This document shows, one piece after another, positions 5,615 through 34,726 of a DNA stretch of 64,000 nucleotides (position 1 is the stretch's first letter; each line of letters begins with the position of its first letter). The translations under genes and the position numbers were made by a program. The stretch covers positions 558,001-622,000 of the forward strand of contig OZ287087.1 of the NCBI GenBank assembly GCA_965645245.1. The letters are read 5' to 3'. The notes under the pieces are model-generated. The model made no database searches. It was given only the letters and a program-made list of their open reading frames with translations, and was not told the DNA's origin. This DNA comes from Massalongia carnosa (taxonomy: Eukaryota).

Positions 5615-5663
5615 TAGTTCCCCTCTCTCTTTAGGTGTCGACCCCTGACACCTATCACTGTTC

Positions 5664-6179: not shown

Positions 6180-6536
6180 GCCAAAAGATGTAAGGCAAGT
6201 AAGGTAAGATAAATTGTTCCAAGTTATCGAGTAGCTTGCTGACTTTCGCTTAGATAAGAAGTTGAGCTTAGCAGAGATGTTTGCTGATAGGAAGATAGTA
6301 TATGTGCTGATCAGGTAGGTAGTAAAAGCTAGATAATTTGCTGAGTTCTGGTAGTATGGAAAAGGTAAAACATGGAGGTGAGGATTCGGAAGATGGCAAT
6401 TTCGACTAAGGTTGGTGAAGTTTTCGGTGAATTTTGGTAAGTGTGAAATGAAACTATTCCGAAGGTTCGTGTGCTTCCTCCGCTGACAATATGCATTTTA
6501 CTAAGGAAATTCGTTCGATATAGGTAGTCGGATATG

Positions 6537-10124: not shown

Positions 10125-13100
10125 GTTTCGTCTCGGTTCTCCGGAAACAGGTCCTCTGCTGTATGGAGTTTGCTACCAGGATCGGAAGTCGCTATGAACT
10201 TAGCAGTTCGTTTCCCATCTTCAGCATGTATGGTGCATTCTACCTCGTTGTTACGGTAGTCCAAGCCCACACGCATCTGGTGAAGATAAGGTTGTCCTAG
10301 CACTAGTTGATGGTCCGCAGCATCAATGACAAATATGTGGTTAAGCGACGCTACTCCGCCAATATCAACCTCCACGTTTTCACACACCCCGAGGAATTCC
10401 TTTCTATGTCCGGTATGGGAAATTAGATTGATATTTGGGTAAGGTCGCATGGCCAGACCCTCGCGCTTAGCGACATCATATGTCATCACGTTCACTTCGG
10501 CACCTGAGTCAAGAAGAGACTTATATCGGCCTCCATCACCAACTCGCACTTTGGCTTTAGGTGTCGACCTTGTATATGCTCTGCGGAGTAGTGGATCCCG
10601 AATGCCGATAGAGCCGATTTTTACCGTTGGACCGTCCTGTCTTTCTGCTTCCGTATTTCGTGTCACTTTGTTAACTACCGATTTAAACATGGGTAACATG
10701 GCTATGATATTGCCATTGGTCAGTCCTCCAGTACCAGCTGCTAGCGATTGCAGATAGCGGCCCTGTATCAAGTCCACGTTGAACTCTCGTCTCGCTATCT
10801 TCAGGAATTCTTCTGCACCTATCTTTTCTATGGCGTCTCGAACTTCTCCACGAATAGGTGCCCTCAGCACTCCGGTACCCGGCTTCTTCTTTCCGCCGCC
10901 TTTCCCAGCTAGACCTGCTTCTGTCATTTCCACATCTTCTTCTATAGGGTCAGCAAATGTTACCCGAGGTTCTGCCGCGGAAGCTCTGTCGGTTGGTTTT
11001 GATTGGTCAAGACTATCATTCCGACGTTCTACCGACGTAGGAAGCGGACTCCAATTGCCATATCTAGGTGCTTTCGGTACTGCGAAATGGTCCTCGCGCT
11101 CAGCCCTGCGTTTCAGAATTCGTTTAGCCGGCTCTTTCCAGTTCTCCTCAGCAGGTTTATTGTTTTCGGTCCTAGCCGAGTTGATAGAGGTAGTATGTTC
11201 GATGATCGTCACCTCCGGGTCCCATTCTTCGTCAGAAGAAAAGTCATCTGCACTATCCTCGCCTATTCGAACCGTGTGCACTTCGGCATTTTGTCCAGCT
11301 TGACTAAATTGATTGGCCAACATCTTCGCACGTCTAATGGACTCTTTTTGTGTCACACCCGGTAAATGCCGAATTGGGTTGGAATATGTACCCATCGGTC
11401 CCAGACAGAGCAGGCCTTTCTCATTCAGATGGATAACACCATTCCTTTGGTCAGCGTCGAAGTCTGGACAGTCTCTTCGCCTGTCATGCAGTACCTTCTC
11501 TCCACAATAGTTGCAGCTTTCGTCGCTACCATATTGATGGTCATGCTGTTGTCTCTGTCCGTCATAGGATGACTGTCTATGTGGTGATTGGGAACGGTTC
11601 CGACTCTGCTGACTCTGCTGACTATTCTGATTGGCCGGTCGCATTTGAGCTCCGGTGGCAAGGACTAATGCATCGAACTTATTGGTCAGGTCCATGATAG
11701 TTTTCTCCGTGGACTTCGATAGGCTAACAGTAGTCGAGTCTGCTACTGGTGGACTAAGCGAGTTCATGATATTTTCATGACCGTCTAGCACTATCTTTTT
11801 GTCGAACTGGTCGGCTAGAGCACTATATTTATCGGTTACACTCTTCTCGGTCCGCATCACCTCCTTATATTTCATTCTCGCCTCTACTAGTGTCAGAGTC
11901 TTTTTCACCAGTCCATCAAAGTCCTTCATCACATTATCGTCGAAATCAACACCTCGGCGAAAGAACAACTCTTCGCGTATGTCAGCAGGAAGACCTTGCA
12001 TGAACCACTGATTTCGTGTGTAAATGTCTAGCTTCTCTTGACTAATTAGGGCTTTGGATATGGCACCGAACTTCCGACAGAAGTTCCGCACATCATCGTC
12101 GCTAGTGCGTACTTTGTCCTTGTATGACTCCAGAAACGGTCGAGAATTCACCTGCTGAATGCTATCGCCAGCCTTGTACTCTTTCTTCATCACCTTGCTC
12201 AGCTGTGTCCATCTTCTCTCCACAAAGTCCGGAAGCGACTCAATGGTCTGGCCAATTAGCATGTCGCAATAACGGGGCAACCTACGAATCCTCTCATTGT
12301 TTCCGACATGATAGTCCTCACACATATCCTCGTACCGACTCAGGAACTCCGACACATTTTTACCTTGAAAGAATGGAGTGCCAGGAGTGCCTGGTTGAGG
12401 CATGGTCATCACAAATCCAAAGGGTCCAGCGGACATGGCTGGTCTATTTCCAAAAGACTCGGGGCTTGTCGACGATGGTGTGGTCATGGTGCTCTCTGCC
12501 TCGTGACTAGGTTGACCTTCGGTTGTAGGTATGATAGTCGATGGACTATCTCGGCTCGCAAGTGGAGCAGGACTATCAGTTCGCGTACGTGCCTCGTTAG
12601 TGTTTCGGACGCTAATGACAAGTTGCTCAAGAAGAGGAATGAGGTTTGTAACGATTTTTGTCAGCTGTGAGGTAGTTGTTTCTTTGTCGTCAGAGGTTGG
12701 GATATGACTACTCGGCTGACAATAGTATTGATGACAATGCGAAACAGGATGATGAGTATACGTCTCTCCTGCAGACGAATGACCAATAGGAGCTTGCTTA
12801 GTCGGCTCGAAACAATGATATGACAAACAAGGACAAGTATGTGTCTGGTACGGTGGAGGTAGGTCGAAATGTCTGTGGTGCAGAGGTGCTGGTGCCGCCT
12901 CCGTATGCAGACGTTGTCTGTTATAGCAATGCGCTCTGCTTTCTCTCTCGGTATTGTCAACTGGTGAATAGGAAGTTTGATATGAATTGTACGAATGGGT
13001 AGAATGGAATGGCTGCGCTATTCTGCCATCGGAGGGAAATGAGGCTACTTTTATGTCTACTCCGTGTCGTTTTGTCTCTCGGTTCCCGACGCTGGCTAAT

Positions 13101-13171
13101 CTCCTAGCAGGAATGCGATACCGCTCAGGCCCCATGTCTGTGGGTACACTATATTTTTGCCACTGTCGCAC
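10115..13171 (-). CDS. gag: Gypsy gag-protease ORF
   Basis: PGTPFFQGKNVSEFLSRYE gag motif, Cys/His knuckle CNYCGEKVLHDRRRDC, aspartic protease LLDSGAEVN. True start codon uncertain. Confidence 0.9.
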   Translation of the reverse strand: MRQWQKYSVPTDMGPERYRIPARRLASVGNRETKRHGVDIKVASFPSDGRIAQPFHSTHSYNSYQTSYSPVDNTERESRAHCYNRQRLHTEAAPAPLHHRHFDLPPPYQTHTCPCLSYHCFEPTKQAPIGHSSAGETYTHHPVSHCHQYYCQPSSHIPTSDDKETTTSQLTKIVTNLIPLLEQLVISVRNTNEARTRTDSPAPLASRDSPSTIIPTTEGQPSHEAESTMTTPSSTSPESFGNRPAMSAGPFGFVMTMPQPGTPGTPFFQGKNVSEFLSRYEDMCEDYHVGNNERIRRLPRYCDMLIGQTIESLPDFVERRWTQLSKVMKKEYKAGDSIQQVNSRPFLESYKDKVRTSDDDVRNFCRKFGAISKALISQEKLDIYTRNQWFMQGLPADIREELFFRRGVDFDDNVMKDFDGLVKKTLTLVEARMKYKEVMRTEKSVTDKYSALADQFDKKIVLDGHENIMNSLSPPVADSTTVSLSKSTEKTIMDLTNKFDALVLATGAQMRPANQNSQQSQQSRNRSQSPHRQSSYDGQRQQHDHQYGSDESCNYCGEKVLHDRRRDCPDFDADQRNGVIHLNEKGLLCLGPMGTYSNPIRHLPGVTQKESIRRAKMLANQFSQAGQNAEVHTVRIGEDSADDFSSDEEWDPEVTIIEHTTSINSARTENNKPAEENWKEPAKRILKRRAEREDHFAVPKAPRYGNWSPLPTSVERRNDSLDQSKPTDRASAAEPRVTFADPIEEDVEMTEAGLAGKGGGKKKPGTGVLRAPIRGEVRDAIEKIGAEEFLKIARREFNVDLIQGRYLQSLAAGTGGLTNGNIIAMLPMFKSVVNKVTRNTEAERQDGPTVKIGSIGIRDPLLRRAYTRSTPKAKVRVGDGGRYKSLLDSGAEVNVMTYDVAKREGLAMRPYPNINLISHTGHRKEFLGVCENVEVDIGGVASLNHIFVIDAADHQLVLGQPYLHQMRVGLDYRNNEVECTIHAEDGKRTAKFIATSDPGSKLHTAEDLFPENRDETLN

Positions 13172-13672
13172 TCACGCCGTCGCTAAATCATTGAGGCATT
13201 CGCTAAATGTGGCGATGTTCTCAAACGGGATTAGTCTGTCGACTTCAACTGCCGAGTCGCAATTCCGAGGCTCCTGATTGGTCCGGTCCGTAATGCCGTC
13301 ACTTTTCCGTCTTTCTTCGTCTCGCTGTCAATTCTTTTAGTACCTAGACCGTCTCCACCGTGTCGCAAGCTGTATGGGGTCGTCCCGTCGCTATGTCCGA
13401 GTCCGCGCGTTCTTGAGAGGTCTGTTCGTGCCTCGTTGTCAGGGTCAAATGGATGCCCCCGTTCTTTCTGTCTTTCTCCGGTCACTGTATGTCGTTTTTC
13501 CACTATCTCTAGATATCTGTACGCTGTCGCTGCTTCCTGTCGCTGTTTCCTGTCGCTATTTCCTGTCGCTGTCGCTGTCGCTGTAAGTCTACTGTCTGTC
13601 TCACATGTCTGTCTAGACTCGTCGTTGGATTCCTGCTCCCGGTCAAATAGAGATCGCACCGTGGTCGCCAAA

Positions 13673-14022
13673 TGTGGAAGGATGAACTGGGTGGTGTGCG
13701 TGGTCCACTACTGCTAGGAGTGCAAGAGAACAAACAAACAAGAGAAGAACAGAACAATAGAATAAGGACAATAGCTAGATTGGTCTCTGTATGCCTCGTG
13801 CCTCGTGCCTCGTGCCTGTGAACTGTATGTGTTGATGCTATGTGTTGTAGCTATTGCTACGAGCATGCTTGCTCTAAAAGGAAAAGAACTATCTATAACT
13901 AAACTAAAAGAAAGACTGTCACCTGACTTCCCCTCTACCTTTACCGAGTATCAGCCGAAAAGAACTAACTCCCGAACCGCTAGCAATTTGAATTTAGAGT
14001 ATCACCGCTCCACCCCCCTACA
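13673..14022 (-). repeat. Gypsy 5' LTR
   Basis: Direct repeat of 5265-5614, adjacent to the PBS. Confidence 0.97.
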
Positions 14023-18861: not shown

Positions 18862-18898
18862 TTTCGTTATGGCGGTTTGGTATTTACCGTCCGCCGTA
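18862..18898. repeat. Right TIR of element copy A
   Basis: Exact reverse complement of 22056-22092; identical to 32007-32043. Confidence 0.92.
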
Positions 18899-19264
18899 GA
18901 TGGCGGGGCTGAATCCTAAGGTAGGCTAGATTTCGATGAGAACGAGCTTATACCTACCTATATCATAAAGGGGCTCGCTCTGCCATTCAGAATAACTGGA
19001 CCCTGTCATCTCCGTTGAATCCGGCGCCTCTGACGACGACCCCGTCGCTGATGCGGAGCAGTGCCCAGGCTCCGGGATGTAGGTCAGGCATAATTCACAT
19101 ACTACGCTATGGTATCTTGAATGACCGACCATCTTTTGTGGGTTGTGATTGTAAGCTGGGATCGGTGACTGCCGGTATCCTACGATTTTGCGCGTGAGTT
19201 CGAGCTGACGATCTACAGACCAAGCGCCTCCTGTCCGCACAAGAGCAGATGTCAGATCGCTACC

Positions 19265-21584
19265 ATGCCACCTATTTCAGACCTTGTGCAGCTTTCAAAG
19301 CTCGAGACTCAATTCCACTCTGATCCGGAATATACGCAACACGTCCAGTACATTTCTGGAAGTACGGCAAGACAAAGAAAAGTTCGCATGGAGGAAAAAT
19401 GGATGAGAGAAAGGATGCTAGGAAGCGGCAGTTTCGGGATCGTCTGGTTAGAGCGGTGTATTCAAGGGAACAGTGAAGGGAAAGTACGAGCTGTAAAGAA
19501 GGTCCGAAAACTTGAGTCCAGCGATTATTACAGAGAATTGGAAGCTATTGCTCTGTTTTCTCACAGCAATGTAAGTCTATACTGCTGTTATTCTTTCACA
19601 ACCTACTTTTCCACACCTTACGCTAACGTCAAGCTAGTACGAACGATGCTTTGTTAAGTCCTTCGGCTGGTATGATGATAGTGACAGCATATTTATTACT
19701 ATGGAGTACCTTTCATATGGTGATTTGCATAAGTACATCGGTTCGCCGCTACCAGAGAAGGAAGGACAGCATATCGTTTTTCAGATCCTCGAAGGCTTAC
19801 AATTCATGCATGATAAAGGGTTCGCTCACAGAGATTTAAAGCCAGCTGTAAGCCTAGCTACATGCATCAATATAATCAGAAAATTAGCTAATACTCTAAG
19901 TAATACAGAACATACTAGTTGTGGACAAAGGCCCAGAGTGGTGGGTCAAGATCGCAGACTTTGGAGTCAGCAAGCGGGCAACAGAGGGACTTACAGCATT
20001 AAGAACCCAAAAAGGCACACCTGCTTTTATGGCACCAGAAGTACTTGGCTTTATTCAATTGAACGACGAATCAAATGATTCGTATACAAACGCTGTTGAT
20101 ATCTGGTCTCTAAGTGTTATCACATTCTTCATACTCACCGGCGAGATTCTTTTCAAAGACCTGCGCCGTCTAGGTCAGTATGTTGCGGGCAACTTTAAAT
20201 TTCCTTTGAATGTCTTGCTTGTAAACAAAGTAAGTGGACAGGGATGCGACTTCTTAAAAAGCTCAATGGCGTCAAAATCTGAGGATCGTCCGAGGGCTAA
20301 TGAATGTTTACAACATTCGTGGTTGGATTTTCTTATAGAAGAGGCGGCTCCCGACACTCCAAGGTATTACTTCTTATAGATGGAGACAGAAAATTATTAT
20401 AATATCTTATAATAATAATGTTGTAGTGTTGCTGATATCTTTGCAGAAAAATCAATGTTACAAAGCCAATTTCAACACCGCTGGACTGTTCAGATCCTGA
20501 GCCCTCTGCTAATTGGAGCACTCAAGACTCAATCTCGGCCTACGAGACTTATAGCTCTACGGGCGTGCTTACTAAAAAGACTTCATCTACTTCTAAGGAA
20601 GCAGTAGCATCTTCAAAATCAGAACCAGCGACTCAAATCTATTGGCATATGGCAAGCATCCTCAAGGGTCATTCGGATTATGTTAGGGCGGTGGCATTCT
20701 CGCCAGACGGGAAGCAGATCGCGTCTGCATCGAGGGACACGACGATCAGGCTCTGGGACTCGGCCACGGGGGCTTCGCGCAACATCCTCAAGGGTCATTC
20801 GGATTATGTTAGGGCGGTGGCATTCTCGCCAGACGGGAAGCAGATCGCGTCTGCATCGTGGGACACGACGATCAGGCTCTGGGACTCGGCCACGGGGGCT
20901 TCGCGCAACATCCTCAAGGGTCATTCGGATTATGTTAGGGCGGTGGCATTCTCGCCAGACGGGAAGCAGATCGCGTCTGCATCGTGGGACACGACGATCA
21001 GGCTCTGGGACTCGGCCACGGGGGCTTCGCGCAACATCCTCGAGGGTCATTCGGGTGAGGTTGACGCGGTGGCGTTCTCGCCAGACGGGAAGCAGATCGC
21101 GTCCGCATCGTGGGACAGGACGATCAGGCTCTGGGACTCGGCCACGGGGGCTTCGCGCAACATCCTCGAGGGTCATTCGGATTATGTTAGGGCGGTGGCA
21201 TTCTCGCCAGACGGGAAGCAGATCGCGTCCGCATCGTGGGACAGGACGATCAGGCTCTGGGACTCGGCCACGGGGGCTTCGCGCAACATCCTCGAGGGTC
21301 ATTCGGGTGGAATTCTCACGGTGGCGTTCTCGCCAGACGGGAAGCAGATCGCGTCCGCATCGAGCGACACGACGATCAGGCTCTGGGACTCGGCCACGGG
21401 GGCTTCGCGCAACATCCTCAAGGGTCATTCGGGTGGAATTCTCGCGGTGGCATTCTCGCCAGACGGGAAGCAGATCGCGTCCGCATCGTGGGACAGGACG
21501 ATCAGGCTCTGGGACTCGGCCAGGGCTCGGCCACCGGGGCGGCGTAATAAGTTTTCCCAGTACCTAGAAAAGTTTTTCACATAG
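19265..21584 (+). CDS. Ser/Thr protein kinase fused to 7 highly conserved WD40 repeats, paralogue A (exons 19265-19570, 19638-19847, 19909-20363, 20447-21584)
   Basis: GSGSFG, AVKK, HRDLKPAN, DFG, GTPAFMAPE, DIWSL; three GT-AG introns splice in frame; 7 x 126-bp GH...WD repeats. Confidence 0.9.
20661..21522 (+). repeat. 7 x 126-bp WD40-coding tandem repeat
   Basis: Near-identical units varying mainly at GHSxxVxA and ASASxDx codons. Confidence 0.97.
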
Positions 21585-22202
21585 AAAATTATTACGACCT
21601 CCATCCCCACCCACCTCCATCGCCCTTTACGTCCTTATATACCATTTTAATCATTGGATTATTAATTCCTGCTTCAAAGAATGTCGCTCTGCTTTGAAAT
21701 CTAAGCTACTTCGAAATTCTTGTCCTGAAATGTACTTTTCTTTGAAATACACTTTGCTTTGAAATCCTATGTCACGGCGTATAACGACCTCGCGGTTAAA
21801 TAAGCTTTACCATTAAGTTAACCGACCTATTAGCCTTGTAGGACGAATAGGCACAAATCTGTAGTGAGAAACTTCAGTGCTTATTCTACTACGTGTACGA
21901 TAGAGGCACATTAATCAGAAAACGACAGTATAAACGCAAACAGAAAAAAGTAACCTTTCCAAAAACGCAGAACAAAGAACATAGCTTCAGGCGACGTCAC
22001 TACATCACAAACCAAATCCTGTTCCGCTGCCATCAAAACGAGACGAATGCAAATCTACGGCGGACGGTAAATACCAAACCGCCATAACGAAATTCTTGAG
22101 TTTCGAATCGCGACATTGCGACGAAAAAACAACGTACATTTATAATTCCACGCTTTCTTCTCTTCCCATTTCTTCCTCTCTATTATATAAAGTTAGTATA
22201 GT

Positions 22203-22878
22203 TCAATGATGGGACTTCGTACGATCTGAAACATACTCTTCAACCTTGTCTGATATGCTTAAAGTGTCAACCTGCGCTGCCGCTAACTCTCGAGACAACT
22301 GAACATCAGGGTTGTCTTCTACAGAAGACAACGAGACGGTTGTCTCAATTGTACGACGCTCTGACGCAGACGCAGACGACGAAAGAGGGAGTGCCACATG
22401 AGAGAACTGTTGCGTTAAGGGAGGAATAGGTCTGACGATCGCGTACACTCCGTCTATAACATAATTAAATAAAGCAATAAGATTCTCACATATTTTAGAC
22501 ATTACGTACGATATCGGCATTGAGCCGAAGCATCTCCCCAAACGCAATTGGCACACGCGCCTTCTCTCAAGACATCTAAACCATAGCATCCAATGAAGGG
22601 CCCCGATCCTCGTACGCAACGCTTGCACGGAAGATGACGAAGAGCCCCTCGAGATGCTATGATTAGAGCTTAAATATAAGAAGACCGGGCTCGTTCAATC
22701 TGATGTGCCTTGATCCCTTCCGCATGCCTTAATTGCACATTGCGACCCGTGGGACGTCGCAATAAGAAAACACGCAATTCTTCGTGCAGGTCATACGGAA
22801 GTAACTAAATCAAATTAGAAACATGAATAACAATATGAGACAAGAACTTACCTCAGGAGCTGCAGTCCGCACCATCAT
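22203..22878 (-). pseudogene. DUF3716-like Cys-cluster protein, copy B (3 exons, in-frame TAA at 22670-22672)
   Basis: MMVRTAAPE|LLPYDL...PCKRCVRGSGPFIGC...GACANCVW...C|DGVYAIVRP; introns start GTAAGT and GTAATG. The C-x2-C/GPF/C/CANC pattern matches DUF3716 as I recall it. Confidence 0.65.
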
Positions 22879-23633
22879 AGAATGAGTGAGAAGGTCAGCG
22901 GCAGAAGCCAAAGACGGCACTGAACATAATATATCAGTTCGTACGAGTCACTTACTGTTAGATAGATAAATGATATCACATACCGGAAGACATAGTGATG
23001 AGGACAATGATGAAAGAAAGAAAGAAGAAAAAATAAGTGAGCTTGAAGACTGCACATGATGATATTCACTGTCACAACACGAGCTTGCGTTATTCACCCG
23101 TACGTTTCATTATTAGACTTTCATATTATATTACACTCTCGATGTATATTTTAATCTAATTGACTTGCTTGGTTTCACTCTACATATAAGAGTTACTCGT
23201 CCTGAACACTGCGTAGAAGTGCAAGTCTTGTTCAGGTATCGTACACATCCCGTACGATTAAGTAGTGCTTGTGCTTGTGCTTGTGCTGTAACTTTAAAAA
23301 AATCTTCATACTCACTTTAATAAAGAACAATGTCAGTTTCTCGAGTCGTTCCGTCATCATTAAAAACATGATTCCCAAATATTCATTATATTATTACAAG
23401 ATTGCGCCAGTGTCATTTGAAACCTACCGCTCGTACGGGTCATTGTTGAATGATATATGTAGGGCTCGATGTCGTCAAACTTCAAATGCTTTCGCTTAAA
23501 TTTTGAAGTTAGGGTTACTCTATCGTTTTCAATAAAGGTGATGGCTGACTCAAGCCGTACGAAACATAAAACATGTGTACTTAAGAAAAGCCACAACTAA
23601 CAACTCCTTCATCAACCTAATACGAACAGAGAT

Positions 23634-24686
23634 TCAATGGCTCTGTTCTTCCGATTTTAAGTCCATCTTGGACCGCGTACGACGAGGTGATATCGTTGTC
23701 AAGATGGAAGTTGGCGGAGAGCGGACAGAAATGGTTCTTTTGCGTAGATTTTCCACTGAAGGAAAAGAAGAATCAGTCATTTCTTCGTGTAAATTGTTAA
23801 CAAGAGAATGCAACAACACGTACGAGTCATACCTTGAACATGCGCATCAGAAATCTTTTCCTGTTTGAAGATTTTGTTCTTCTTGACACATTCGTCCGAG
23901 TCTTTTCTTTCCAACTTGATTTTAGATTTCGAATTAAATCGAAGTCTGATCTTGGGTTTTACAGGAGTCTCCACAGTGTCTTTGTCCGAGGTGTCTTGCG
24001 AGTCGTACGAGGTATCCAGTCTCACCGCAATCACCCACATGTTGTATTCATTGATTGCAGACTTTTTAAAGTACTGCAGATATTCAATCAACGAAGTTAC
24101 ATCTCTAGCACTGCAACCCAAATCTGTGGCTCCATGTTTGTCTGACCAGTCACATGCCAAATACACTGCTATGGCAGTGGATTTCAGGTCATCGTAAGAT
24201 GTCATTTCTAGTAGGATTGATTTGTTTAGGAAAATGGAAGGATTGAACTCCGTGTGCTCGTTGAGAATTATGTTTGTCATGGCTAATATATTAATATAAC
24301 AACTCCTCACGGAAGAAACGACAGTATAAACACTTACAAACTTTGATCCATTTAACCGTCTTGCTGTTATCAAACAAATAACATTCTCGAATCACCAAAG
24401 GTGCAATTATCTTATGCACTATGCCAGAAGATACTTGAGATTGAGATCCTGTCTTCCGTACGCTCATGGCTGGCAATCCAGCATGAGGTTTCAGAGAAAC
24501 TTTGGACTTTGGAATAGTTCCCAGTCGTTGAAGATTCACATCCTTCCCATCTCCATACGTGGCAAATCGTTTTGCATGCTGAACTCTACCCCGATCTTGA
24601 GCCGTTTGTACATTCTGAGCTCTCAGTAGGTTCGTACGAGATTCAAGAATCTCGGGCGAATCGTCGAAGACAATATAATTTGCCAT
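23634..24686 (-). CDS. Transposon accessory gene of unknown function, copy B (probably 3 exons)
   Basis: MANYIVFDD...WIK | HTEFNPSIF...AHVQ | EMTDSSFPS...QSH*; basic, S/T-rich C-terminus; conserved in copy A. The ORF is open upstream to 24860. Confidence 0.5.
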
Positions 24687-25942
24687 AGACTTTCCAGGAG
24701 TGATTTCCGCTTTCGTAGCAGCAGAACGTGTCGGATTGAAAAAAAAAGCAATGAGGACAATGAGGCAAGCTCCAAAAATCGTTATGCGCCACGGGCGCTT
24801 TCGTACAAATTTCTTCCCAAGTTCTGGACGATATGATGTTGAAAATGATATTGAGGACAATGACTCTTATACAATTATCTCGCAATGGAAAGAACGCATC
24901 AATTAACAGAAACAAGATTTTCGACGCTTGTTCACCGCTACATCTTGCAATTAGTAAAATTGTCCACGTATCAAACTACTTATTCAGTAACTGCATGTGG
25001 AACGATCAATCGTATGACTGTGATATATATTATCATAACACAGTAGTACGTCTGAAAAAACTAGAACAAATTGTAACCCTGAAAAAATCCATCGTACGCT
25101 CACAACAAGTGAGCTAATCTCTTCTTATAACGCCATATGCAAATCCTCAAGAAAATCATCTTCTTGAGCGTTTTCATCTGGACCCTCCTCCGCTAATCCA
25201 GATCTTGCACCATTTCTCGATGCGTATGAAGAGCGTCCTCGTCAGGCTGCCATTGAAACGTGGCATTTGGCTTTTGACACAAGGTCAATTCCGGCTCTTG
25301 TTTACTTTGAATATGATCTGTTACTGCTTGTCGCAGTATTAAATATGCCACGCAATGCGTACGTTCTTGTGATTGATTAGAAAAAGCATCTGCTGCAGTG
25401 ATATTGTTGATGTCAATGTCAAGTCCTTGCATGATTTCTTGAATCCATTGCAAGGTTGTCGCAGGAAGATATTCATCAATGGCTGTAACATCATTAGGTC
25501 TCGTACGTGAAATGTTGAAGTCATAACATGCTTACGCCATTCTGCCACGTCATCTTGCAAGATTTGTAACAATTCCGCATTTGGCTGAAGGCGATGATCT
25601 TCTGTTCCTTCAGCGGGATAATTGTACAATCTGACAGATTGACCAGATAAAGAATTGAGTCGCTGACGCTGTTTGCGTATCCTGTGTACATGATGATGAT
25701 GATTATGATGATGTATTCAAACTCCGATATGACACCGGCCGTAGGCCGGCCCATGCGGGCAAAGCTATCTAAGTTATGTTACATGGAAAACCTTTCACAG
25801 GTGTAAAAACCATGTCCCTTGATACCCGTCCGATGTGACTACGTGTCGACGTCGGGCGGGAGACGCAGTGCAAAAGACGTGTGGGAACTGTAATGCCTTG
25901 TGAAAAGAGAAGAAAGAAAGAAAGGTTCAACTATTGTTGATT

Positions 25943-28900
25943 TTACAATATTGTTGATGCTAGTGAGAATTGATTCAATAAGCCTGTTTTCATTAGCCAA
26001 GCAGTTAGTATCTTCAGAGTTTTTGATGATTTGATCAGCTGCTGATAGTCGCTCGTGCCGGCGGCGCGAAACATCTGTTCTCTATTGTCAATAAGTCTGC
26101 AGAACATGATTACATGTTCTGGAGTTTGTCTGTGCCAGCCACATGAGCAGGCCGGTGAGGTGACGGAGGGCACCCGTCGCTTGTAGAGGAAGTCAGCTAA
26201 CCCGATTTTGCCAGTGCGGATTTGAGTTGTTAGAGCGCTTTCTGCCTTTTTTAGCTGCGTGTGTATTTTCAGCCGTTTTTTGCTCAGTGGGACTGATTGT
26301 GCTATGGAGGGTTCGATGACGCGATTTTGATATGCGCACCACGAGTCGTTCCAGACCTTCATTTGTCGTGCTTTGATTGTTTGCATCTGCTTGTGTCGGG
26401 CCGTTGCCGCAACGGTAGCTTCGCGGTGCCACGCCGGGTAGACTTCGAACCATGGTGGGTGTGCCTTTGGTGGTTGAACTATTTTTGAGTCGATCAGTAG
26501 GCTTTTGGCCCAGATGTGTTTCAGCTCTCCCGGGGTGGGCTTTTGAAGTCGGTTGCGACCTGCCTTGCCTCGAAGTTTGTCAGCTATTTTGTTGCATGCG
26601 GAGGAGATGATCTTCAATTGGCCTCCGGCTCGGAGCCGGTGCCTTGCCTGTGCTTGTAGCATGTCGAGATGCGTGTCTATGGGCGCTATGAATGTCTCTG
26701 CTTCTAGTACTGAGATGGGAGTGGCTTTAAAGGCACCGGCTATGGTGCGAAGGTAATTGTTTTGCATGACGGAGAGCTTGCTCGTTGACGTTTTTGACTT
26801 TTTGACTTCTTTGGGCATGTGCCATACGGTTGACCCATATGTCATGGCCGGACGCACCACGGCACTGTAAACCTGCCTTGCCTTGGCGAAGGTGGCACCC
26901 CAGGTTGATGTGGAAATTTTTGTCAATGCCATGGATTGTTTGACCATTTTCTCTTGCGTTTTGCGAACGTGCGGTCCCCATTTCAATTTGGTGTCGATTT
27001 GTAGGCCCAATACTCTGATGTCCGTTTTAGGTTCAATTTCGGTGCTAGCAATATTGATGGATGCAGTCATGTTGAATCTTTTGGGATTTCTGGACAAGTG
27101 TATGAGTTCGTACTTCGTCGGAGCGAATACGGACCTGTGCCGGGAAGCCCACGTCTCACATTGTCTGTGTATTGCCTCTAGAGTTTTGCAGTTTTCCTCG
27201 GTGCTTTTTCCATATGCCAAAATGTTTGCGTCGTCTACGAATGCTATGGCACTTGTGTTTTTGCCTGGTCGATCACATATTTCCAATAGATCTGCATTGT
27301 AAAATAGGTAAAGAATGGATGACAGGGGAGAGCCCTGTGGGATACCCGTTCTTACCGCAAACCGCCCAGTGACTTTTCGATTTATTGCTAAAGTGGTGCT
27401 TCGATCGCTCAGAAAGCTGTTTAACCAGTCGGTGATCCATTTTGGAATTTTTCTTTTCCGTAGGTTGTGCGTTAGTCGTTGATGTGATACCGTATCGAAC
27501 GCGCCGGCGACGTCCATGCTTAGCAGTGTGGCTACTTTGTCTTTTCCCTGTCCCCAAATCGTGTGAACCTGTTCAGTTAGCAGTTCCAGTGCTGACTCTG
27601 TGGATCTGCCCTTCCTTGCTCCCATCTGTGTATCGGGTAGGAGCCGGTGTTTTTCCGCCAGATAGGTTATTTTCGATCCAATGATGGATTCCATAACTTT
27701 ACTGAGCGTGTTGAGCAGTGCAATTGGTCGGTAGGCTTTCGGCGTGGTATAGTCTCCTTTGCCTATTTTTTTCAGCGCTATTGTGTTTGCCATTTTGAAG
27801 GCCCGCGGGTGGTACGAGTGTGTGACGCACGCCTGAAACAGAGGTGTTAGTAGTTCGACAAGTATTTCGCTGCATGCTTTGAGTATTCTGTTAGATATGC
27901 CGTCTGGGCCCGGTGCCTTATCGGACTTGAGCCGACTCAGGGCCGTCGATACTTCTGACTTGGTGATGATTATTGGGCAGTGCGGCGATGTAGGATAGAA
28001 GGATCCTTCTATGTCGCTTAGGTCGGCCGGTGGTGGTGCGGGAAAGAAGACACCTTTCAGCATTTCGGCTTTTTGGTCAAACGTGTCTGCTACTTGGTCA
28101 TTGAATTTTAGCATCGGCATTTTGGATACTTCTCTAGATTGATGACTTTTGTCTTTGGCCCATTTCGCTAGCCGCCATAGTCCCTGAGGCGTTTCGGTGG
28201 CCTTATTGATTTCTTGACGAAAGTTTGTTCTCTTTGCCTTTTGAATGATTTTCTGTTTTTTATCATTGGATTTCATATAGTTAGACCAGTCCGTTAGGTC
28301 TAACGTGCTGGACCATATGCGGCGTAGTTTCCGTGTGGCTTTGGTGGCAATGCTGCATTCTTCTGTCCAGAATGGCTTAGCATATTCGCTAGATTTTGCC
28401 CATGGAACTGCTTCGTTGATGACATTTTGTAGAAATTTTTGAATCGATTCCGTGTACGCATCAATCTCGGCAGTGGTACGGGGAGACTCCGGTATAGGGG
28501 CGTGTCGTTCGGCCTCCCTTAATTTTTCCAGGTTTAGAAGTTTCCATGCTCTGCGTTTGATTTTCGGTTGCGGCTCGCTTCCGAGTAGGATGCGGGTTGA
28601 TATCGGCACGTGATCGGACGATTGATTCAATTCTGGTCTGGACATGCAGTGTTCGAGTCTTTCGACTAGGTATTCTGACATGAAAACCAAATCTATCGTG
28701 CTAGACGTGTTTCTTGCTTCCCATGTTACGGTGCCTTTCGGCAGTGTCAACGAAAGATTATGATCATCGATTATTTCCAGTAATTGATCAGCAGCAGCGT
28801 GTTGTGTGCGTCTTGAGGGACCATTCCAAAAGGGATGATGCAGGTTGAAATCTCCAAGTAGTATGTGATGCGCATCGGCGGTAAGCATGCTCCGAGCCGC

Positions 28901-29296
28901 CGGTAAGGTCGTGGGACTGTCAGTGGATGAATAGGAAGCGGGAGAGGGGTTATACACATTATGGACGTGAATTGTTTCCATAACGCCTTCGGTGTAGGTC
29001 TTTCTTTTCAAAGTGCACATGTCGGCCGAGGTGAATTCCACCTCCCAGCTGTCAGTGTCTATTAGGTCGTTGACATAAAAGCACACTCTGGTGTCACCTC
29101 CTGGGCGGTATAGGAGGTGAAAGCCGCTTTGATGAGAACTAAGCGATGTGGGGGCGGATGGATTGCGCCACGGTTCCTGTATTGCAATAATATCATAGTC
29201 CTGGGTGTTTGTGTCTGCTAAGAGGGGTATCATAGTACTCACTCTGTCATTTCTGACATTATATTGCAATATAGAGAGGGATTTTGTGTCCCTCAT
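25943..29296 (-). CDS. LINE ORF2 (AP endonuclease, reverse transcriptase, C-terminal CCHC)
   Basis: QYNV, IQEP, GDFNLHH, SDH; PGPDGI, GIPQGSPLS, FVDD; CSCG..EHVIMFC. Confidence 0.95.
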   Translation of the reverse strand: MRDTKSLSILQYNVRNDRVSTMIPLLADTNTQDYDIIAIQEPWRNPSAPTSLSSHQSGFHLLYRPGGDTRVCFYVNDLIDTDSWEVEFTSADMCTLKRKTYTEGVMETIHVHNVYNPSPASYSSTDSPTTLPAARSMLTADAHHILLGDFNLHHPFWNGPSRRTQHAAADQLLEIIDDHNLSLTLPKGTVTWEARNTSSTIDLVFMSEYLVERLEHCMSRPELNQSSDHVPISTRILLGSEPQPKIKRRAWKLLNLEKLREAERHAPIPESPRTTAEIDAYTESIQKFLQNVINEAVPWAKSSEYAKPFWTEECSIATKATRKLRRIWSSTLDLTDWSNYMKSNDKKQKIIQKAKRTNFRQEINKATETPQGLWRLAKWAKDKSHQSREVSKMPMLKFNDQVADTFDQKAEMLKGVFFPAPPPADLSDIEGSFYPTSPHCPIIITKSEVSTALSRLKSDKAPGPDGISNRILKACSEILVELLTPLFQACVTHSYHPRAFKMANTIALKKIGKGDYTTPKAYRPIALLNTLSKVMESIIGSKITYLAEKHRLLPDTQMGARKGRSTESALELLTEQVHTIWGQGKDKVATLLSMDVAGAFDTVSHQRLTHNLRKRKIPKWITDWLNSFLSDRSTTLAINRKVTGRFAVRTGIPQGSPLSSILYLFYNADLLEICDRPGKNTSAIAFVDDANILAYGKSTEENCKTLEAIHRQCETWASRHRSVFAPTKYELIHLSRNPKRFNMTASINIASTEIEPKTDIRVLGLQIDTKLKWGPHVRKTQEKMVKQSMALTKISTSTWGATFAKARQVYSAVVRPAMTYGSTVWHMPKEVKKSKTSTSKLSVMQNNYLRTIAGAFKATPISVLEAETFIAPIDTHLDMLQAQARHRLRAGGQLKIISSACNKIADKLRGKAGRNRLQKPTPGELKHIWAKSLLIDSKIVQPPKAHPPWFEVYPAWHREATVAATARHKQMQTIKARQMKVWNDSWCAYQNRVIEPSIAQSVPLSKKRLKIHTQLKKAESALTTQIRTGKIGLADFLYKRRVPSVTSPACSCGWHRQTPEHVIMFCRLIDNREQMFRAAGTSDYQQLIKSSKTLKILTAWLMKTGLLNQFSLASTIL

Positions 29297-30780
29297 AGGA
29301 TTTCCAGCGTTTCGGCCGCTGTGTTCGATGTGACCTGAGTTCCTGCCGTTAATGCTACGGAATCTGCACGAGGCCTACCCAGCACTGGTTTTGCTAAGGC
29401 CTTTACCATATTTTCAGGATTCATGATGCCTATATTAGCCCAGGTAGGTGCGTCGTTTCCCCGATGAGGGCCCGGGGGTGTGCCGGATGAGGGCGTAGCG
29501 TTGTGTATTTTTCTTTTCTTGCCGTTTACTATCTTCCACGTTGATGGAATTTCGTCCGTTTGTGTGACTGTGGGTGTCGACTCTCGTTGAAGTTGAAATT
29601 GAAATGAGGGCGGCTGTGATTCAATTGCATAGAGGGGGGCGCGGTTTTGCATTGCTATTTCAGTTTTTCGCTTTTCAGCTAATCTGACTTTGCATGCTGT
29701 GGACCATGCTTCGTGTCCCTTCTCTCCGCATACGGCGCAACGGCGGTATTGCCCCGTTGTCTCCATATTGCATTCTTTGCTTTGATGTCCACCGGCGCAG
29801 TGACCACAGGCGGCGGGATTGCGGCATGCTCTACCGATGTGTCCGTATTTTTGGCAGTTGAAGCATTGAGTCATGGTGCAACCACGTGTGAAGCGCTCGC
29901 AGTCCTTTATTTCGTAGCTTTCCATTAGGCCCTCGGTGATGAGCCGGTTAGCCATCTCGGCGGTGGCGACCTCGATATGAAGCGTCGAGTACGCTTTTTT
30001 CTCTCTAATGGCCTTGATTGACCAGGCTACTTTGACGATCTTCAGGTTAGGGTGCAGGCGTGCGTTAGCGGCCTGAAGGTAGGTGATGGCTGTTGATTGA
30101 TTGGCCACTTTGATGTTTTCCACCCTGATTCCATTCGCTCTTACGGTGAAGGTGCGGGTGTGCACCGCAGCTGAGGCGGCCACCATGCGGGTCCAATCGG
30201 TCTTCTCCTGCAGGGTCTTCTTTGCTTCCAATGACTCTGCGTGAATCCTGATGTCGCCGTTTAACAAACGCGACACTCCCCTTATTCCTTCAGCTCCATT
30301 TTGTAGTGTTTCTACTAACTCCTTGGTTGGCATTAGCTTCATTTTTTCCTTGTCCGCATCCTCCGTGATGTGAACGGTGATTTCCCGGGCACGTCGCGCT
30401 TCTCTTGGTGTGGGTGCTTTGTCTTTGCGGGGCTGTTGAGGCTTGACGTTTTGGTTCTTTGGGGGTGCGGGCTCATCTCGGCCTTGCCTTGTGGCAGCAG
30501 CGGCATAGCTGCGAGGAGTGGTCTCATTGCGCTCTATGCGTGTCAATGATTGTTGGATTGCCTGTAATGTGTCACCTATGTTGTTGGGAGTTTCTGCAAC
30601 TTTGTCATCGACTAGATTTTGCGCTTGCAAAATTTCCGCTGAGTTTCTCAGCAACTGCAACGCCTCCGGGTCACCAACGGTGCCCACTCGATCAAGATAC
30701 TCCTTGATCTTTACGTGTAAACATTCCCTCCTTTCGCTGTGCGCTCTCGAGAGCGCGTTTGTTTGTTCGAGTGTAGTCAT
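29293..30780 (-). CDS. LINE ORF1 (gag-like, three zinc knuckles)
   Basis: ATG at 30780 inside the element; CFNCQKYGHIGRAC, CGHCAGGHQSKEC, CAVCGEKGHEAWSTAC. Confidence 0.92.
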   Translation of the reverse strand: MTTLEQTNALSRAHSERRECLHVKIKEYLDRVGTVGDPEALQLLRNSAEILQAQNLVDDKVAETPNNIGDTLQAIQQSLTRIERNETTPRSYAAAATRQGRDEPAPPKNQNVKPQQPRKDKAPTPREARRAREITVHITEDADKEKMKLMPTKELVETLQNGAEGIRGVSRLLNGDIRIHAESLEAKKTLQEKTDWTRMVAASAAVHTRTFTVRANGIRVENIKVANQSTAITYLQAANARLHPNLKIVKVAWSIKAIREKKAYSTLHIEVATAEMANRLITEGLMESYEIKDCERFTRGCTMTQCFNCQKYGHIGRACRNPAACGHCAGGHQSKECNMETTGQYRRCAVCGEKGHEAWSTACKVRLAEKRKTEIAMQNRAPLYAIESQPPSFQFQLQRESTPTVTQTDEIPSTWKIVNGKKRKIHNATPSSGTPPGPHRGNDAPTWANIGIMNPENMVKALAKPVLGRPRADSVALTAGTQVTSNTAAETLEIL

Positions 30781-32408
30781 TTTCGCGACAAGTTTATTTG
30801 GGGGTGAGTATTCCTGTGTACATTCCACAATCGTACGAATCCAAAGATCTCTCGCCGAATGATAGGAGTATAAATAGCTAGAAATGCAATGCAATCGGAC
30901 AACATATGAGAATCATAGAGCTTGTCTTCTTGCAACATGGAAAAATACGTCTGTAATGTGTTAACGCTTGTCATTGAAAATGTACGAAAGCGATGACTTA
31001 CTCGCCATCTAAACATAGAACTCTTTGTCAGTTGTCCCCACCATGCCTCGATTCGTTGATTCGCTGTACTAGTACCATAGTAATAACATTCCTCAAAAGA
31101 AATATCAGGCAATTGCTTCTGCATTAACTGATAGTGAGCATTGGCCATCATTGTTGTCTCGGAACCTCTATCCGTACGAATGATCTGAGGCTGGGTGTTT
31201 TCTCTTTGCAGAATATCCAAATATTGACGCAACACGCTGACACCGGTTCTATTTGTGATACCTACATAAGCGTAAACCTCAAGCCCGTACGCCTTGAGTT
31301 TATCGTATCCATCCATAGACCAAAGATAATTCGGTCCCGGAATAACGTATTCTCCTCTATGTCGAAGCAAGTCGGAATAACGCAGTTTTATTCCCACAGG
31401 ATCTAACGTACGAACAGCGGCAAACAATCTATCACTGAAAAGTTATTAGTAACTTAAAATGACGAGTCTCAAAGATTTACACAGGCCGTGAGATAATGTT
31501 TCCTTGCGTACGAAAGTGATAGAATAATTGTCCTCGTCCGAATCCATCAATAACTCCGGAATCTAGTTCCTGACGCACTAGTCTTTCTGCTTCAGCGTCT
31601 GCTTCCGCTTTATTGAAAACAGACACTCGTTTGTATATGCCCATAGATTTTCGAATTCGTTGTAAAGCTCGTGGTGCAATAGTAAAACCTTCTTGCACAA
31701 GAGCATGTAGTGTGTCTGCATCATTGAAGCAAGACTCGTACGTAAGAGCAATAATTCGTAATCTAAGACCAGCAGTATCTGAAGTTATAACATGTGTGCC
31801 AAGAATCCAGCTTTTCAAACGTTCGTTCCAGAGTTCTTCTATTGACTCGTACAGAATGATTTTGAGACAAAAGATATCTTATTTCTAAGACTGTATGTTT
31901 TTGTTGTATCAAACCTGTAACATACAGTTTGTATGCTTCCAAATCAATAAATCGTGGAGGCATTTGTAACTTGTAAGGTGCGAGGTCGCGATTGACAGTT
32001 TCAAATTTTCGTTATGGCGGTTTGGTATTTACCGTCCGCCGTAGATGGCGGGGCTGAATCCTAAGGTAGGCTAGATTTCGATGAGAACGAGCTTATACCT
32101 ACCTATATCATAAAGGGGCACGCTCTGCCATTCAGAATAACCGGACCCTGTCATCTCCGTTGAATCCGGCGCCTCTGACGACGACCCCGTCGCTGATGCG
32201 GAGCAGTGCTCAGGCTCCGGGATGTAGGTCAGACATAGTTCACATACTACGCTATGGTATCTTGAATGACCGACCATCTTTTGCGGTTTGTGATTGTAAG
32301 CTGTGATCGGTGACTGCCGGTATTTTACGATTTGCGCGTGAGTTCGAGCTGATGATCTACAGACCAAGCGCCTCCTGTCCGCACAAGAGCAGATGTCAGA
32401 TCGCTACC

Positions 32409-34726
32409 ATGCCACCTATTTCAGACCTTGTGCAGGTTTCAAAGCTCGAGACTCAATTCCACTCTGATCCGGAATATACGCAACACGTCCAGTACGTTTC
32501 TGGAAGTACGGCAAGACAAAGAAAAGTTTGCATGGAGGAAAAATGGATGAGAGAAAGGATGCTAGGAAGTGGCAGTTTCGGAATCGTCTGGTTAGAGCGG
32601 TGTATTCAAGGGAACAGTGAAGGGAAAGTACGAGCTGTAAAGAAGGTCCGAAAACTTGAGTCCAGCGATTATTACAGAGAATTGGAAGCTATTGCTCTGT
32701 TTTCTCACAGCAATGTAAGTCTACTGCTGTTATTTTTTCACAATACACGTTTTCACACTTTAAGCTAACTTCAAGCTAGTACGAACGATGCTTTGTCAAG
32801 TCCTTCGGCTGGTATGATGATAGCGACAGCATATTCATTACTATGGAGTACCTTTCATATGGTGATTTGCACAAGTACCTCGGTTCACCGCTACCAGAGA
32901 AGGAAGGACAGCATATCGTTTTTCAGATTCTTGAAGGCTTACAATTCATGCATGATAAAGGGTTCGCTCACAGAGATTTAAAGCCAGCTGTAAGCCTAGC
33001 TACATGCATAAATAAATCAAAAACATTACCTAATACTCCAAGTAATACAGAACATACTAGTTGTGTGCAAAGGCCCAGATTGGTGGGTCAAGATCGCAGA
33101 CTTTGGAGTCAGCAAGCGGGCAACAGAGGGACTTACAGCATTGAGAACCCAAAGAGGCACACCTGCTTTTACGGCACCAGAAGTACTCGGCTTGATTCAA
33201 TCGAACGACGAATCAAATGATTCGTATACAAACGCTGTCGATATCTGGTCTCTAAGTGTTATCACATTCTTCATACTCACCGGCGAGATTCTTTTCAAAG
33301 ACCCGCGCCGTCTAGTTCAGTATGTTGCGGGCAACTTTAAATTTCCTTTGGATGTCTTGCTTGTAAAAAAAGTAAGCGGACAGGGATGCGACTTCTTAAA
33401 AAGCTCAATGGCGTCAAAGTCTGAGGATCGTCCAAGGGCTAATGAATGTTTACAACATTCGTGGTTGGATTTTCTTATAGAAGATGCGGCTCCCGACACT
33501 CCAAGGTATTACTTCTTATAGATGGAGACAGAAAATTATTATAATATCTTATAATAATAATATTGTAGTGTTGCTGATATCTTTGCAGAAAAATCAATGT
33601 TACAAAGCCAATGTCAACACCGCTGGACTGTTCAGATCCTGAGCCCTCTGCTAGTTGGACCACTCAAGACCCAATTTCGGCCTACGAGACGCATAGCTCT
33701 ACGGGCGTGCTTACTAAAAAGACTTTGTCTACTTCTAAGGAAGCAGTAGCACCTTCAAAATCAGAACGAGCGACTCAAATCTATTGGCATATGGCAAGCA
33801 TCCTCAAGGGTCATTGGGGCGGGATTTGGGCGGTGGCATTCTCGCCAGACGGGAAGCAGATCGCGTCCGCATCGGGGGACATGACGATCAGGCTCTGGGA
33901 CTCGGCCACGGGGGCTTCGCGGAACATCCTCAAGGGTCATTCGGGTAGGGTTGTGGCGGTGGCATTCTCGCCAGACGGGAAGCAGATCGCGTCCGCATCG
34001 GGGGACAGGACGATCAGGCTCTGGGACTCGGCCACGGGGGCTTCGCGCAACATCCTCAAGGGTCATTCGGGTAGGGTTGTGGCGGTGGCGTTCTCGCCAG
34101 ACGGGAAGCAGATCGCGTCCGCATCGGGGGACACGACGATCAGGCTCTGGGACTCGGCCACGGGGGCTTCGCGCAACACCCTCAAGGGTCATTCGGATTA
34201 TGTTAGCGCGGTGGCATTCTCGCCAGACGGGAAGCAGATCGCGTCCGCATCGGGGGACACGACGATCAGGCTCTGGGACTCGGCCACGGGGGCTTCGCGC
34301 AACATCCTCAAGGGTCATTCGGATTATGTTAGGGCGGTGGCATTCTCGCCAGACGGGAAGCAGATCGCGTCCGCATCGGGGGACACGACGATCAGGCTCT
34401 GGGACTCGGCCACGGGGGCTTCGCGCAACATCCTCAAGGGTCATTCGGATTATGTTAGGGCGGTGGCATTCTCGCCAGACGGGAAGCAGATCGCGTCCGC
34501 ATCGGGGGACACGACGATCAGGCTCTGGGACTCGGCCACGGGGGCTTCGCGCAACATCCTCAAGGGTCATTCGGATTATGTTAGCGCGGTGGCATTCTCG
34601 CCAGACGGGAAGCATATCGCGTCCGCATCGGGGGACACGACGATCAGGCTCTGGGACTCGGCCAGGGCTCGGCCACCGGGGCGGCGTAATAAGTTTTCCC
34701 AGTACCTAGAAAAGTTTTTCACATAG
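32409..34726 (+). CDS. Ser/Thr kinase-7xWD40 fusion, paralogue B (4 exons)
   Basis: Same exon structure and intact kinase motifs as paralogue A; WD40 variable residues differ. Confidence 0.9.
33803..34664 (+). repeat. 7 x 126-bp WD40-coding tandem repeat
   Basis: Near-identical units; every unit reads ASASGD. Confidence 0.97.

Follow-up and report, generated by a model that had tools for sequence, protein, structure and literature searches.

The closest described counterparts of the genes considered here are the HNWD/NWD receptors of Podospora anserina (het-d and het-e, as well as het-r), whose 126-nt WD40 units are, in the accessible parts of the reports, highly identical within a gene, subject to concerted evolution and exchange between paralogues, variable at codons 7, 9, 25 and 27, and set in transposon-rich surroundings (PMC1805685, PMC12222747, PMC13449251). 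In these repeats, codons 7, 9, 25 and 27 are under diversifying selection and codons 8 and 26 are conserved, all of them lying on the top face of the propeller (PMC1805685). We analyzed a 64,000-nt stretch of the Massalongia carnosa genome (C21:558001-622000 of the assembly; hereafter the window) that contains two genes, A and B, in which arrays resembling those of HNWD genes in unit length, internal identity, concerted evolution, exchange between paralogues, variable codons and transposon-rich surroundings are attached to a protein kinase. Unlike HNWD genes, which have 10–12 units, the kinase-WD40 genes have neither NACHT nor HET; an active-looking kinase is joined straight to a propeller of 7–8 units (one propeller), and the genes come in a tandem cluster with a divergent MLKL-shaped partner. 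On balance, we lean toward the reading that A and B are variable sensor kinases, devoid of a nucleotide-binding domain (NBD), that act on a near-invariant death executioner.

Other precedents concern the kinase and the partner. In animals, RIPK3 and MLKL likewise combine an active kinase with a protein built of a helical bundle and a pseudokinase (PMC12881547, PMC10197012). Fungi possess HeLo/HELL proteins with kinase-like parts, and NBD-less sensors in which a protease is fused to WD40, TPR or ANK repeats beside a gasdermin; as is proposed here, these are two-gene death clusters in which an enzyme-repeat fusion controls the adjacent executioner (PMC12881547, PMC10197012; see also PMC9815663). 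The accessible text of PMC12881547 mentions HELL-pseudokinase proteins without a partner kinase, notes MLKL-shaped fungal proteins without naming an activator, and treats the stimuli of fungal death sensors as an open question. Fusion of a kinase to repetitive WD40 units is known from bacteria, where Thermomonospora curvata PkwA (PDB 5YZV) resembles A and B in its Ser/Thr kinase and in an internally similar seven-blade propeller with an N-terminal closing strand (PMC6805158, PMC5587647, as far as these sources were accessible).

The locus departs from each of these systems. Compared with RIPK3-MLKL, the sensor is fused to the kinase and the genes are linked; the likeness is one of analogy, and no RHIM or amyloid motif turned up, none having been searched for. 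Compared with the fungal HeLo/HELL-kinase-like proteins, the gene next door encodes a kinase fused to WD40 or ankyrin repeats and shows variation of the HNWD type. Compared with PkwA, the fungal family contains introns, has far higher internal identity and draws on a multi-gene repeat pool. We found no published description of fungal kinase-WD40 genes with high internal conservation (HIC) or of their pairing with HeLo-pseudokinase genes, although supplementary domain tables of surveys on NOD-like receptors and gasdermins could list such proteins.

Structure and variable surface of genes A and B

A and B each have four GT-AG exons (predicted intron model) and an unbroken 702-aa frame, which encodes a Ser/Thr kinase followed by a linker of ~75 aa, then seven WD40 units (42 aa each) and finally a short tail (Table 1). 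The kinase motifs of A (GSGSFG, AVKK, RELE, HRDLKPAN, DFG and APE) are all preserved. Within its linker, EPSAxWSTQD and IYWHMASI are both kept in homologues, and structure models suggest that the IYWHMASI segment is probably the closing strand of the propeller. A full-length model of the Endocarpon homologue P0007 has a confident seven-blade propeller, which superposes on PkwA 5YZV at 1.0 Å root-mean-square deviation and in which the IYW segment forms the strand before blade 1; the model has a pTM of 0.53 and a low-confidence linker, and does not fix the orientation of the kinase relative to the propeller. Array A folded as a single sequence, at moderate confidence (pLDDT 60.5), matches seven-bladed propellers, with PkwA 5YZV as best hit. 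The motif EPSAxW[S/T]TQD is conserved among homologues while the other linker residues are not. It lies in the low-confidence region of the P0007 model, occurs two or three times in some homologues (P0013, P0021), and is possibly a docking or autophosphorylation site.

The nearest homologues come mainly from lichen-forming ascomycetes, and one sequencing run containing this DNA is labelled as a lichen metagenome. Related kinases (P0022, P0035, P0040, P0003, P0032) carry ankyrin repeats or formin GBD/FH3 domains where A and B carry WD40, so the C-terminal module appears interchangeable. No NACHT or NB-ARC domain was found in A or B, whose exon open reading frames (ORFs) match solely the Pkinase and WD40 families. 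Since they also begin with a kinase and not with a HET or death-effector domain, A and B are ruled out as fungal NOD-like receptors (NLRs) of the HNWD/NWD type. They evolve like an HNWD sensor all the same, and are probably similar in what they do.

To describe the repeats we used the first 105 nt of 80 units from the whole family, after removal of three truncated terminal units (K3b_8, K9_8, K11_8) from 83. Variation is concentrated at codons 2, 6, 7, 9, 25 and 27. Amino-acid entropy at codons 7, 9, 25 and 27 is 2.86, 3.23, 2.58 and 1.55 bits, against 0.70 and 0.10 at codons 8 and 26, and the pairwise proportion of non-synonymous differences (pN) is 0.458 at the six variable codons, against a pN of 0.018 and a synonymous proportion (pS) of 0.064 at the other 29. 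These six codons, which amount to 42 hypervariable residues in a seven-unit array, were picked from the present data; four of them (7, 9, 25 and 27) were named independently in HNWD genes, with which both the codon numbering and the pattern agree (PMC1805685, accessible parts). Surface types are numerous: 66 distinct types in 80 units on five residues, compared with 55 in 69 on four positions in Podospora HNWD. Full five-residue types are shared by 3 of 55 array pairs, and none is common to A and B.

An original prediction, made from the window alone, held that the kinase parts of A and B differ by scattered substitutions and that the residues varying from blade to blade are mostly different. 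Both statements hold: the non-repeat coding regions differ at 42/1185 nt (pS 0.070, pN 0.026), with an additional 2-nt indel in intron 1, and the arrays differ at 33/42 hypervariable residues compared with 6/203 others (pN 0.472 vs 0.013). Its residue-level observations were reproduced as well. Codon 25, the variable position of ASASxD, reads R, W, W, W, W, S, W in units A1–A7 and G in all seven B units (GGG throughout), the E/K before GH varies in A alone (K, K, K, E, E, E, K, against K in 7/7 B units), and each array has seven units.

The 14 units of A and B, which were expected to cluster by gene, are not separated in this way. Their mean distance is 6.9/105 nt within and 7.6 between arrays (permutation p=0.105, or p=0.52 without codon 25). 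Pairing units by position brings them no nearer to each other than shuffling does (64 differences, a total equalled or undercut in 96% of permutations); clustering by position was rejected by this permutation for A and B and by tree labels for all 80 units. The loops of units 1–7 are DYVR, DYVR, DYVR, GEVD, DYVR, GGIL, GGIL in A and GGIW, GRVV, GRVV, DYVS, DYVR, DYVR, DYVS in B. An identical 15-nt SDYVR loop occurs in A1, A2, A3, A5, B5 and B6 and in none of the other units among the 80, and A2/A3 differ from B5/B6 at just 2/105 nt. The blades of A and B therefore differ by position because shared unit types have been shuffled, not because each array has a separate repertoire. Mean within-array differences of 7.9 (A) and 6.0 (B) per 105 nt place both genes within the HIC definition of units >80–85% identical.

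Repeat exchange across the kinase-WD40 family

A genome-wide search for copies recovered 11 kinase-WD40 genes, seven of which (K1, K2, K3, K4, K5, A and B) lie within a 150-kb cluster on C21; eight of the 11 retain an open frame. The repeat number, thought at first to be held at seven, turned out to vary, with 4, 4, 7, 7, 7, 7, ~7.4, 8, 8, 8 and 7 + ~8 units. In other organisms, 20 homologues bear WD40 units (several are incomplete or come from fragmented assemblies); of these, 10 carry seven units, and no homologue exceeds eight. Seven is thus the natural size of a single propeller and the modal unit number, but it is not fixed. The double array of K3 (L039, C21:495735-499060) consists of 7 units, a 27-aa spacer with a second IYW strand, and 7 further full units, all in frame. 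Its junction shows a 5-nt microhomology, and the spacer is of the type found in K9 and K11, copies on other contigs; the sequence points to K3 as a probable double propeller created by ectopic recombination. In K11 (L037:1094-4452, C7), the open frame extends into its ATG from upstream.

The kinases and linkers of A and B have different affinities. A joins a kinase of the K3/K5/K8 type to a linker of the K2/K4 type, and B does the reverse. Across the 5′ region, B differs from K2/K4 by 1.3% and from A by 4.2%, and recombination in this part is significant (adjacent-site incompatibility 0.09 vs 0.27, p=0.0001). Because the affinities of kinase and linker are swapped and B is nearer to K2/K4, A and B are recombinants and not, as had been assumed, sisters derived from one duplication. 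The loop GGG-GAC-ACG of B is shared with K3 only, the loop TGG-GAC-AGG of A is shared with K1 only, and the 3′ ends of A and B carry a duplication of 11 nt that recurs, in variant form, in the second array of K3 and nowhere else. The contrast is sharpest between K3 and K5, where the kinase part differs at 17/1097 nt and the hypervariable residues at 27/42, while their partner genes differ at 0/1595 nt.

In a tree of the 80 units, gene labels require 27 changes, against 61 after shuffling, and unit positions do not cluster. Each of the three arrays from other contigs forms one clade, and the C21-cluster arrays need 2–6 changes each; nearest neighbors lie solely in the own array for 22/26 dispersed units and for 31/54 cluster units. 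Since cluster units mix while dispersed arrays form single clades, array rewriting draws on a pool common to neighboring copies. The rewriting is real and fast, and repeat sharing follows physical proximity. The idea of fast homogenization plus diversification thus stands for the surface residues of the whole family and fails as a purely within-gene process, since cluster copies share units. NLR loci with WD40 repeats, proposed as donors, were rejected as the source: 79 NACHT-WD40 units from 11 loci are at least 22/105 nt from any kinase unit and have no loop in common with them. The donors of the A and B repeats are, on sequence grounds, sibling kinase genes.

Homogenization, inter-paralogue exchange and selection are already known for repeats of fungal receptors (PMC12222747, PMC13449251, PMC4986451, in their accessible parts). 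The novelty in the repeat part is HNWD-type evolution on a putative receptor without an NBD, not the mechanism itself. The NACHT-WD40 family (L038, L040-L049; C22, C10, C7, C2, C12, C8, C19, C16) has up to 15 HIC units, which vary at codons 6, 7, 8, 9, 25 and 27. The window also holds, at 55691-60748, an NB-ARC + TPR gene with ~24.6 near-identical 126-nt units, in which the array contains a frameshift and in-frame stops.

The pseudokinase partner, its linkage and its loss

Outside the window, K1, K3, K5, K9 and K10 each stand head-to-head with a gene of ~510 codons, the two ATGs being 528–557 nt apart. Five close copies of this partner were found in the genome, all beside these five kinases; only those of K3 and K5 are intact. 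In the C-terminal part of the partner, HK[N/T] replaces HRD, and GFE replaces DFG in 61/63 homologues. All 63 homologues give weak Pkinase matches, and all 63 have a Thr at position 365, in the activation segment. From these motifs, the C-terminal part is a pseudokinase that lacks the catalytic Asp. In MLKL, too, GFE stands where DFG is expected. When the partner was searched against PDB sequences, generic kinases alone were returned, with no MLKL chain among the 60 best, and a HeLo-positive paralogue returned nothing. The N-terminus, which we call HeLo-like, starts with a hydrophobic stretch. Its best match in the Atlas, which uses language-model features, scores 0.95 and is to a cluster that is 93% HeLo; its structural neighbors are Rx_N coiled-coil bundles (TM 0.54–0.63, below the tool's bar for naming a family). 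Some partner-like genes of this genome that are more distant paralogues score above the cut-off of Pfam HeLo. The partner belongs to a large family (872 representatives at E up to 1e-30).

The pairing extends beyond this genome. Kinase and partner genes occur together in Psora testacea, Endocarpon pusillum, Brigantiaea leucoxantha and Ciborinia camelliae, where pairing was judged from consecutive locus tags or accessions and therefore means adjacency, not orientation. These fungi together represent three classes. Among five metagenome kinase matches of at least 65% identity, three have the partner (divergent in L052 and L066, tandem in L053), and the other two (L054, L056) lie on contigs <1.4 kb. 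Of the 23 more distant partner-like matches in this genome, 19, belonging to 8 families, were examined over 10 kb. A kinase and/or ankyrin gene lies near 17/19 of them (7/8 families), with a kinase domain detected at 10/19; 0/13 control loci match the kinase or partner profile, these controls being NLR neighborhoods rather than random windows, with ankyrin genes uncounted there. By these comparisons, head-to-head pairing is shown as a genomic association. A complex prediction without alignments for the Endocarpon kinase and pseudokinase domains scored 0.00, and was used neither for nor against binding.

The 19 loci (L132-L150) are HeLo/DUF7580-pseudokinase genes mostly next to kinase-ankyrin genes, some head-to-head and one nine-copy family tail-to-tail. 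L139 encodes a 1091-aa fusion protein with a C-terminal half outside named families, and its family has no kinase or ankyrin neighbor. K8 has no partner nearby, and K11 has upstream a divergent DUF7580 gene (593 aa) whose sequence bears no relation to that of the usual partner.

The C21 cluster reads partner-K1-element-K2, partner-K3-element-K4, partner-K5-element-A-element-B. Upstream of the ATG, the homology of A and B to the paired copies extends for ~360 nt and stops where the inverted repeat of an element of 4.9 kb lies, and K2 and K4 show the same upstream break plus a further insertion. To judge from where this homology stops, a transposon deprived A and B of their partner. The element (4.9 kb with an inserted long interspersed nuclear element (LINE) excluded) contains CGTACG 22 times, where its base composition predicts 0.7 occurrences. 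Other copies lie at C21 446300-457858, 499663-508627 and 545319-576901; all four full copies found sit between kinase genes of the cluster, with fragments on other contigs. No target-site duplication was seen at the element copies. Retroelements in the window lie at 5265-14022 (Gypsy, with identical 350-nt long terminal repeats), 25692-30811 (the LINE, with long open ORFs) and 45649-50193 (a 1514-aa Copia ORF). Their young appearance suggests that repeat-induced point mutation is weak or absent.

Table 1. Features of genes A and B, the neighboring element, the other kinase-WD40 copies and the pairs in other fungi (coordinates are those of the window).
Feature	Position or identifier	Strand	Remarks
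Gene A	19265-21584	+	kinase + linker + 7-blade WD40; GT-AG model
Gene A exons 1-3, Ser/Thr kinase domain	19265-19570, 19638-19847, 19909-20363	+	Pfam Pkinase; GT-AG model
Gene A exon 4, linker	20447-20660	+	EPSAxWSTQD motif 20499-20528; IYWHMASI strand 20637-20660
Array A, 7 WD40 units of 126 nt	20661-21542	+	repeat units; fold matches 7-bladed propellers
Gene A 3′ end, 11-nt duplication	21515-21584, stop at 21584	+	sequence comparison
Gene B	32409-34726	+	kinase + linker + 7-blade WD40; GT-AG model
Gene B exons 1-3, kinase domain	32409-32714, 32780-32989, 33051-33505	+	K2/K4-type; catalytic motifs intact
Gene B exon 4, linker	33589-33802	+	K3/K5/K1-type; 4-6 differences to K3/K5/K1 vs 10-11 to K2, K4, A; EPSAxW[S/T]TQD motif 33641-33670
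Array B, 7 units of 126 nt	33803-34684; tail and stop to 34726	+	repeat units
Right terminal inverted repeat of element upstream of A	18871-18901		~360 nt before A ATG; other copies continue into partner gene
Element between A and B	22053-32046		~60-nt terminal inverted repeats, CGTACG-rich; abuts B upstream region in partner's place
rva_4 integrase-core ORF of element	30777-31442	minus	domain match
LINE inserted in element	25692-30811		within A-B element
K1	C21 cluster		8 units
K2	C21 cluster		7 units, premature stop
K3	C21 cluster		7 + spacer + ~8 units, in frame
K4	C21 cluster		4 units, frameshift
K5	C21 cluster		7 units
K8	C21, outside cluster		4 units
K9	C1		8 units, frameshift
K10	C16		8 units
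K11	C7		7 units + broken eighth; DFG -> GFG
Pair in Psora testacea	Q9217_000675/674		consecutive locus tags/accessions
Pair in Endocarpon pusillum	GJ744_006315/316		consecutive locus tags/accessions
Pair in Brigantiaea leucoxantha	Q9190_001108/109		consecutive locus tags/accessions
Pair in Ciborinia camelliae	NHQ30_002475/476		consecutive locus tags/accessions

A candidate sensor-executioner system

We propose the following model for the family. The WD40 arrays evolve in the manner of the HNWD sensors of Podospora: through unequal exchange the scaffold stays almost the same, whole units and loops of half a unit are passed on inside a gene and among neighboring paralogues, and amino-acid changes build up at codons 6, 7, 9, 25, 27 and 2. 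That the arrays evolve in this way is, from the repeat comparisons, very probable. The ancestral family unit would be the head-to-head pair of a kinase-WD40 gene and a HeLo-like-pseudokinase gene. A non-self or altered-self protein would bind the propeller on its variable top face and so activate the kinase, and sensing of non-self by the kinase-WD40 proteins seems likely to us. By analogy with RIPK3-MLKL, the kinase would then phosphorylate the pseudokinase, with the invariant Thr of the activation segment as the best candidate site, and the freed helical domain would damage the membrane, so that the cell dies. We regard the chances of this last part, from ligand-activated kinase to phosphorylated partner and cell death, as evenly balanced. 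Because a transposon stands where the cis partner would be, A and B could use an executioner only in trans, and they would work on the two identical intact partner copies 35–95 kb away.

Several observations weigh against such a sensor-executioner system. The partner N-terminus matches Pfam HeLo in 0/63 homologues and 0/50 members, and hhalign alignments to HeLo-positive paralogues covered the pseudokinase only; it is for these two reasons that we write HeLo-like, not HeLo. Three of the five partner copies are frameshifted and neither A nor B has a partner in cis, signs that the family may in part be in decay. Among five distant kinase relatives with a 6-kb flank, the partner is present at one (L058) and absent at four (L057, L062, L065, L071). 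In addition, minimum-spanning counts of changes at the variable codons give Fisher p values that run from 0.0003, under the fewest-synonymous assumption, to 0.097, under the most-synonymous one.

The variation itself could have simpler origins. A locally raised mutation rate or neutral repeat turnover at the six codons, instead of selection on a binding surface, would explain why pS is also raised there (0.31 vs 0.064, for a within-codon pN/pS ratio of 1.47) and why minor alleles are rich in transversions (26 transversions to 15 transitions, against 10 to 32 elsewhere). However, the codon variants at each variable site are linked by single-base, mostly non-synonymous steps, codons 8, 24 and 26, which flank these sites, have the same third position in 80/80 units, and the variable codons are free of stops, all of which argues against blind hypermutation. 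The same codons vary in the separate NACHT-WD40 pool and in Podospora HNWD genes, and we regard this explanation as improbable. An equally poor chance is given to the account of the original prediction, in which a single duplication produced A and B, each was homogenized independently, and selection held the number at exactly seven. G25 in every B unit, the lack of a full surface type common to both genes, the seven units in each and the family-wide clustering by gene agree with it; the mosaic structure of both genes, the failure of their units to separate by gene, the loops shared between B and K3, A and K1, and A and B, and unit numbers from 4 to 8 with one double array largely refute it. 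It is very improbable that collapsed or mis-joined repeats turned the arrays into mosaics during assembly. Short-read assemblies garble such arrays, according to the accessible text of PMC12222747, and other sequencing runs give contigs that differ from A at several sites, none of them spanning the stretch. The present assembly, however, comprises 52 Mb in 25 contigs, each array is <1.1 kb and has distinct flanks, the differences focus on the six codons with the frame kept, and run X2 shows, as loose ends, both the junction of repeat and linker in K3 and the insertion at the end of K11.

A rather unlikely alternative to kinase-triggered execution is that the kinase-WD40 protein guards or restrains the partner, or itself serves as a decoy, much like paired plant receptors or het loci of the toxin-antitoxin type, and that death follows when this restraint is lost or mismatched; to a variant with a non-lethal output, for example symbiont screening, we give the same limited credence. 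Partners have been lost or broken while kinases stayed intact and multiplied, which better fits dispensable executioners shared in trans than one-to-one restraint, and the catalytic motifs are intact in both A and B. The head-to-head arrangement would nevertheless suit any sensor/helper pair, and the partner-like family of L139 is without a kinase or ankyrin neighbor. Most close homologues come from lichen fungi, which speaks for this alternative, yet the pair also occurs in the non-lichen Ciborinia.

If A and B are variable sensor kinases acting on a constant executioner, the locus may reveal a kinase-triggered, necroptosis-like immune pathway in filamentous ascomycetes in which the receptor is itself the kinase. 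Kinase-WD40 and kinase-ankyrin sensors would gain new specificities through selection and repeat shuffling of the HNWD kind, and many of them, including partner-less copies, would converge in trans on a near-invariant HeLo-like pseudokinase; we hold this wider proposal, built on analogy, to be plausible but a little short of an even chance. The genes suggest an arrangement of many variable sensors and one constant candidate executioner, which hardly changes beside them, and they add HNWD-type diversification on the kinase arm as well as sensor copies that have no partner of their own. The locus thereby supplies a concrete candidate activator for the MLKL-shaped proteins of fungi, with a putative sensor face diversified as in proven non-self receptors, and makes a possible fungal RIPK3-MLKL-like switch testable with two genes.

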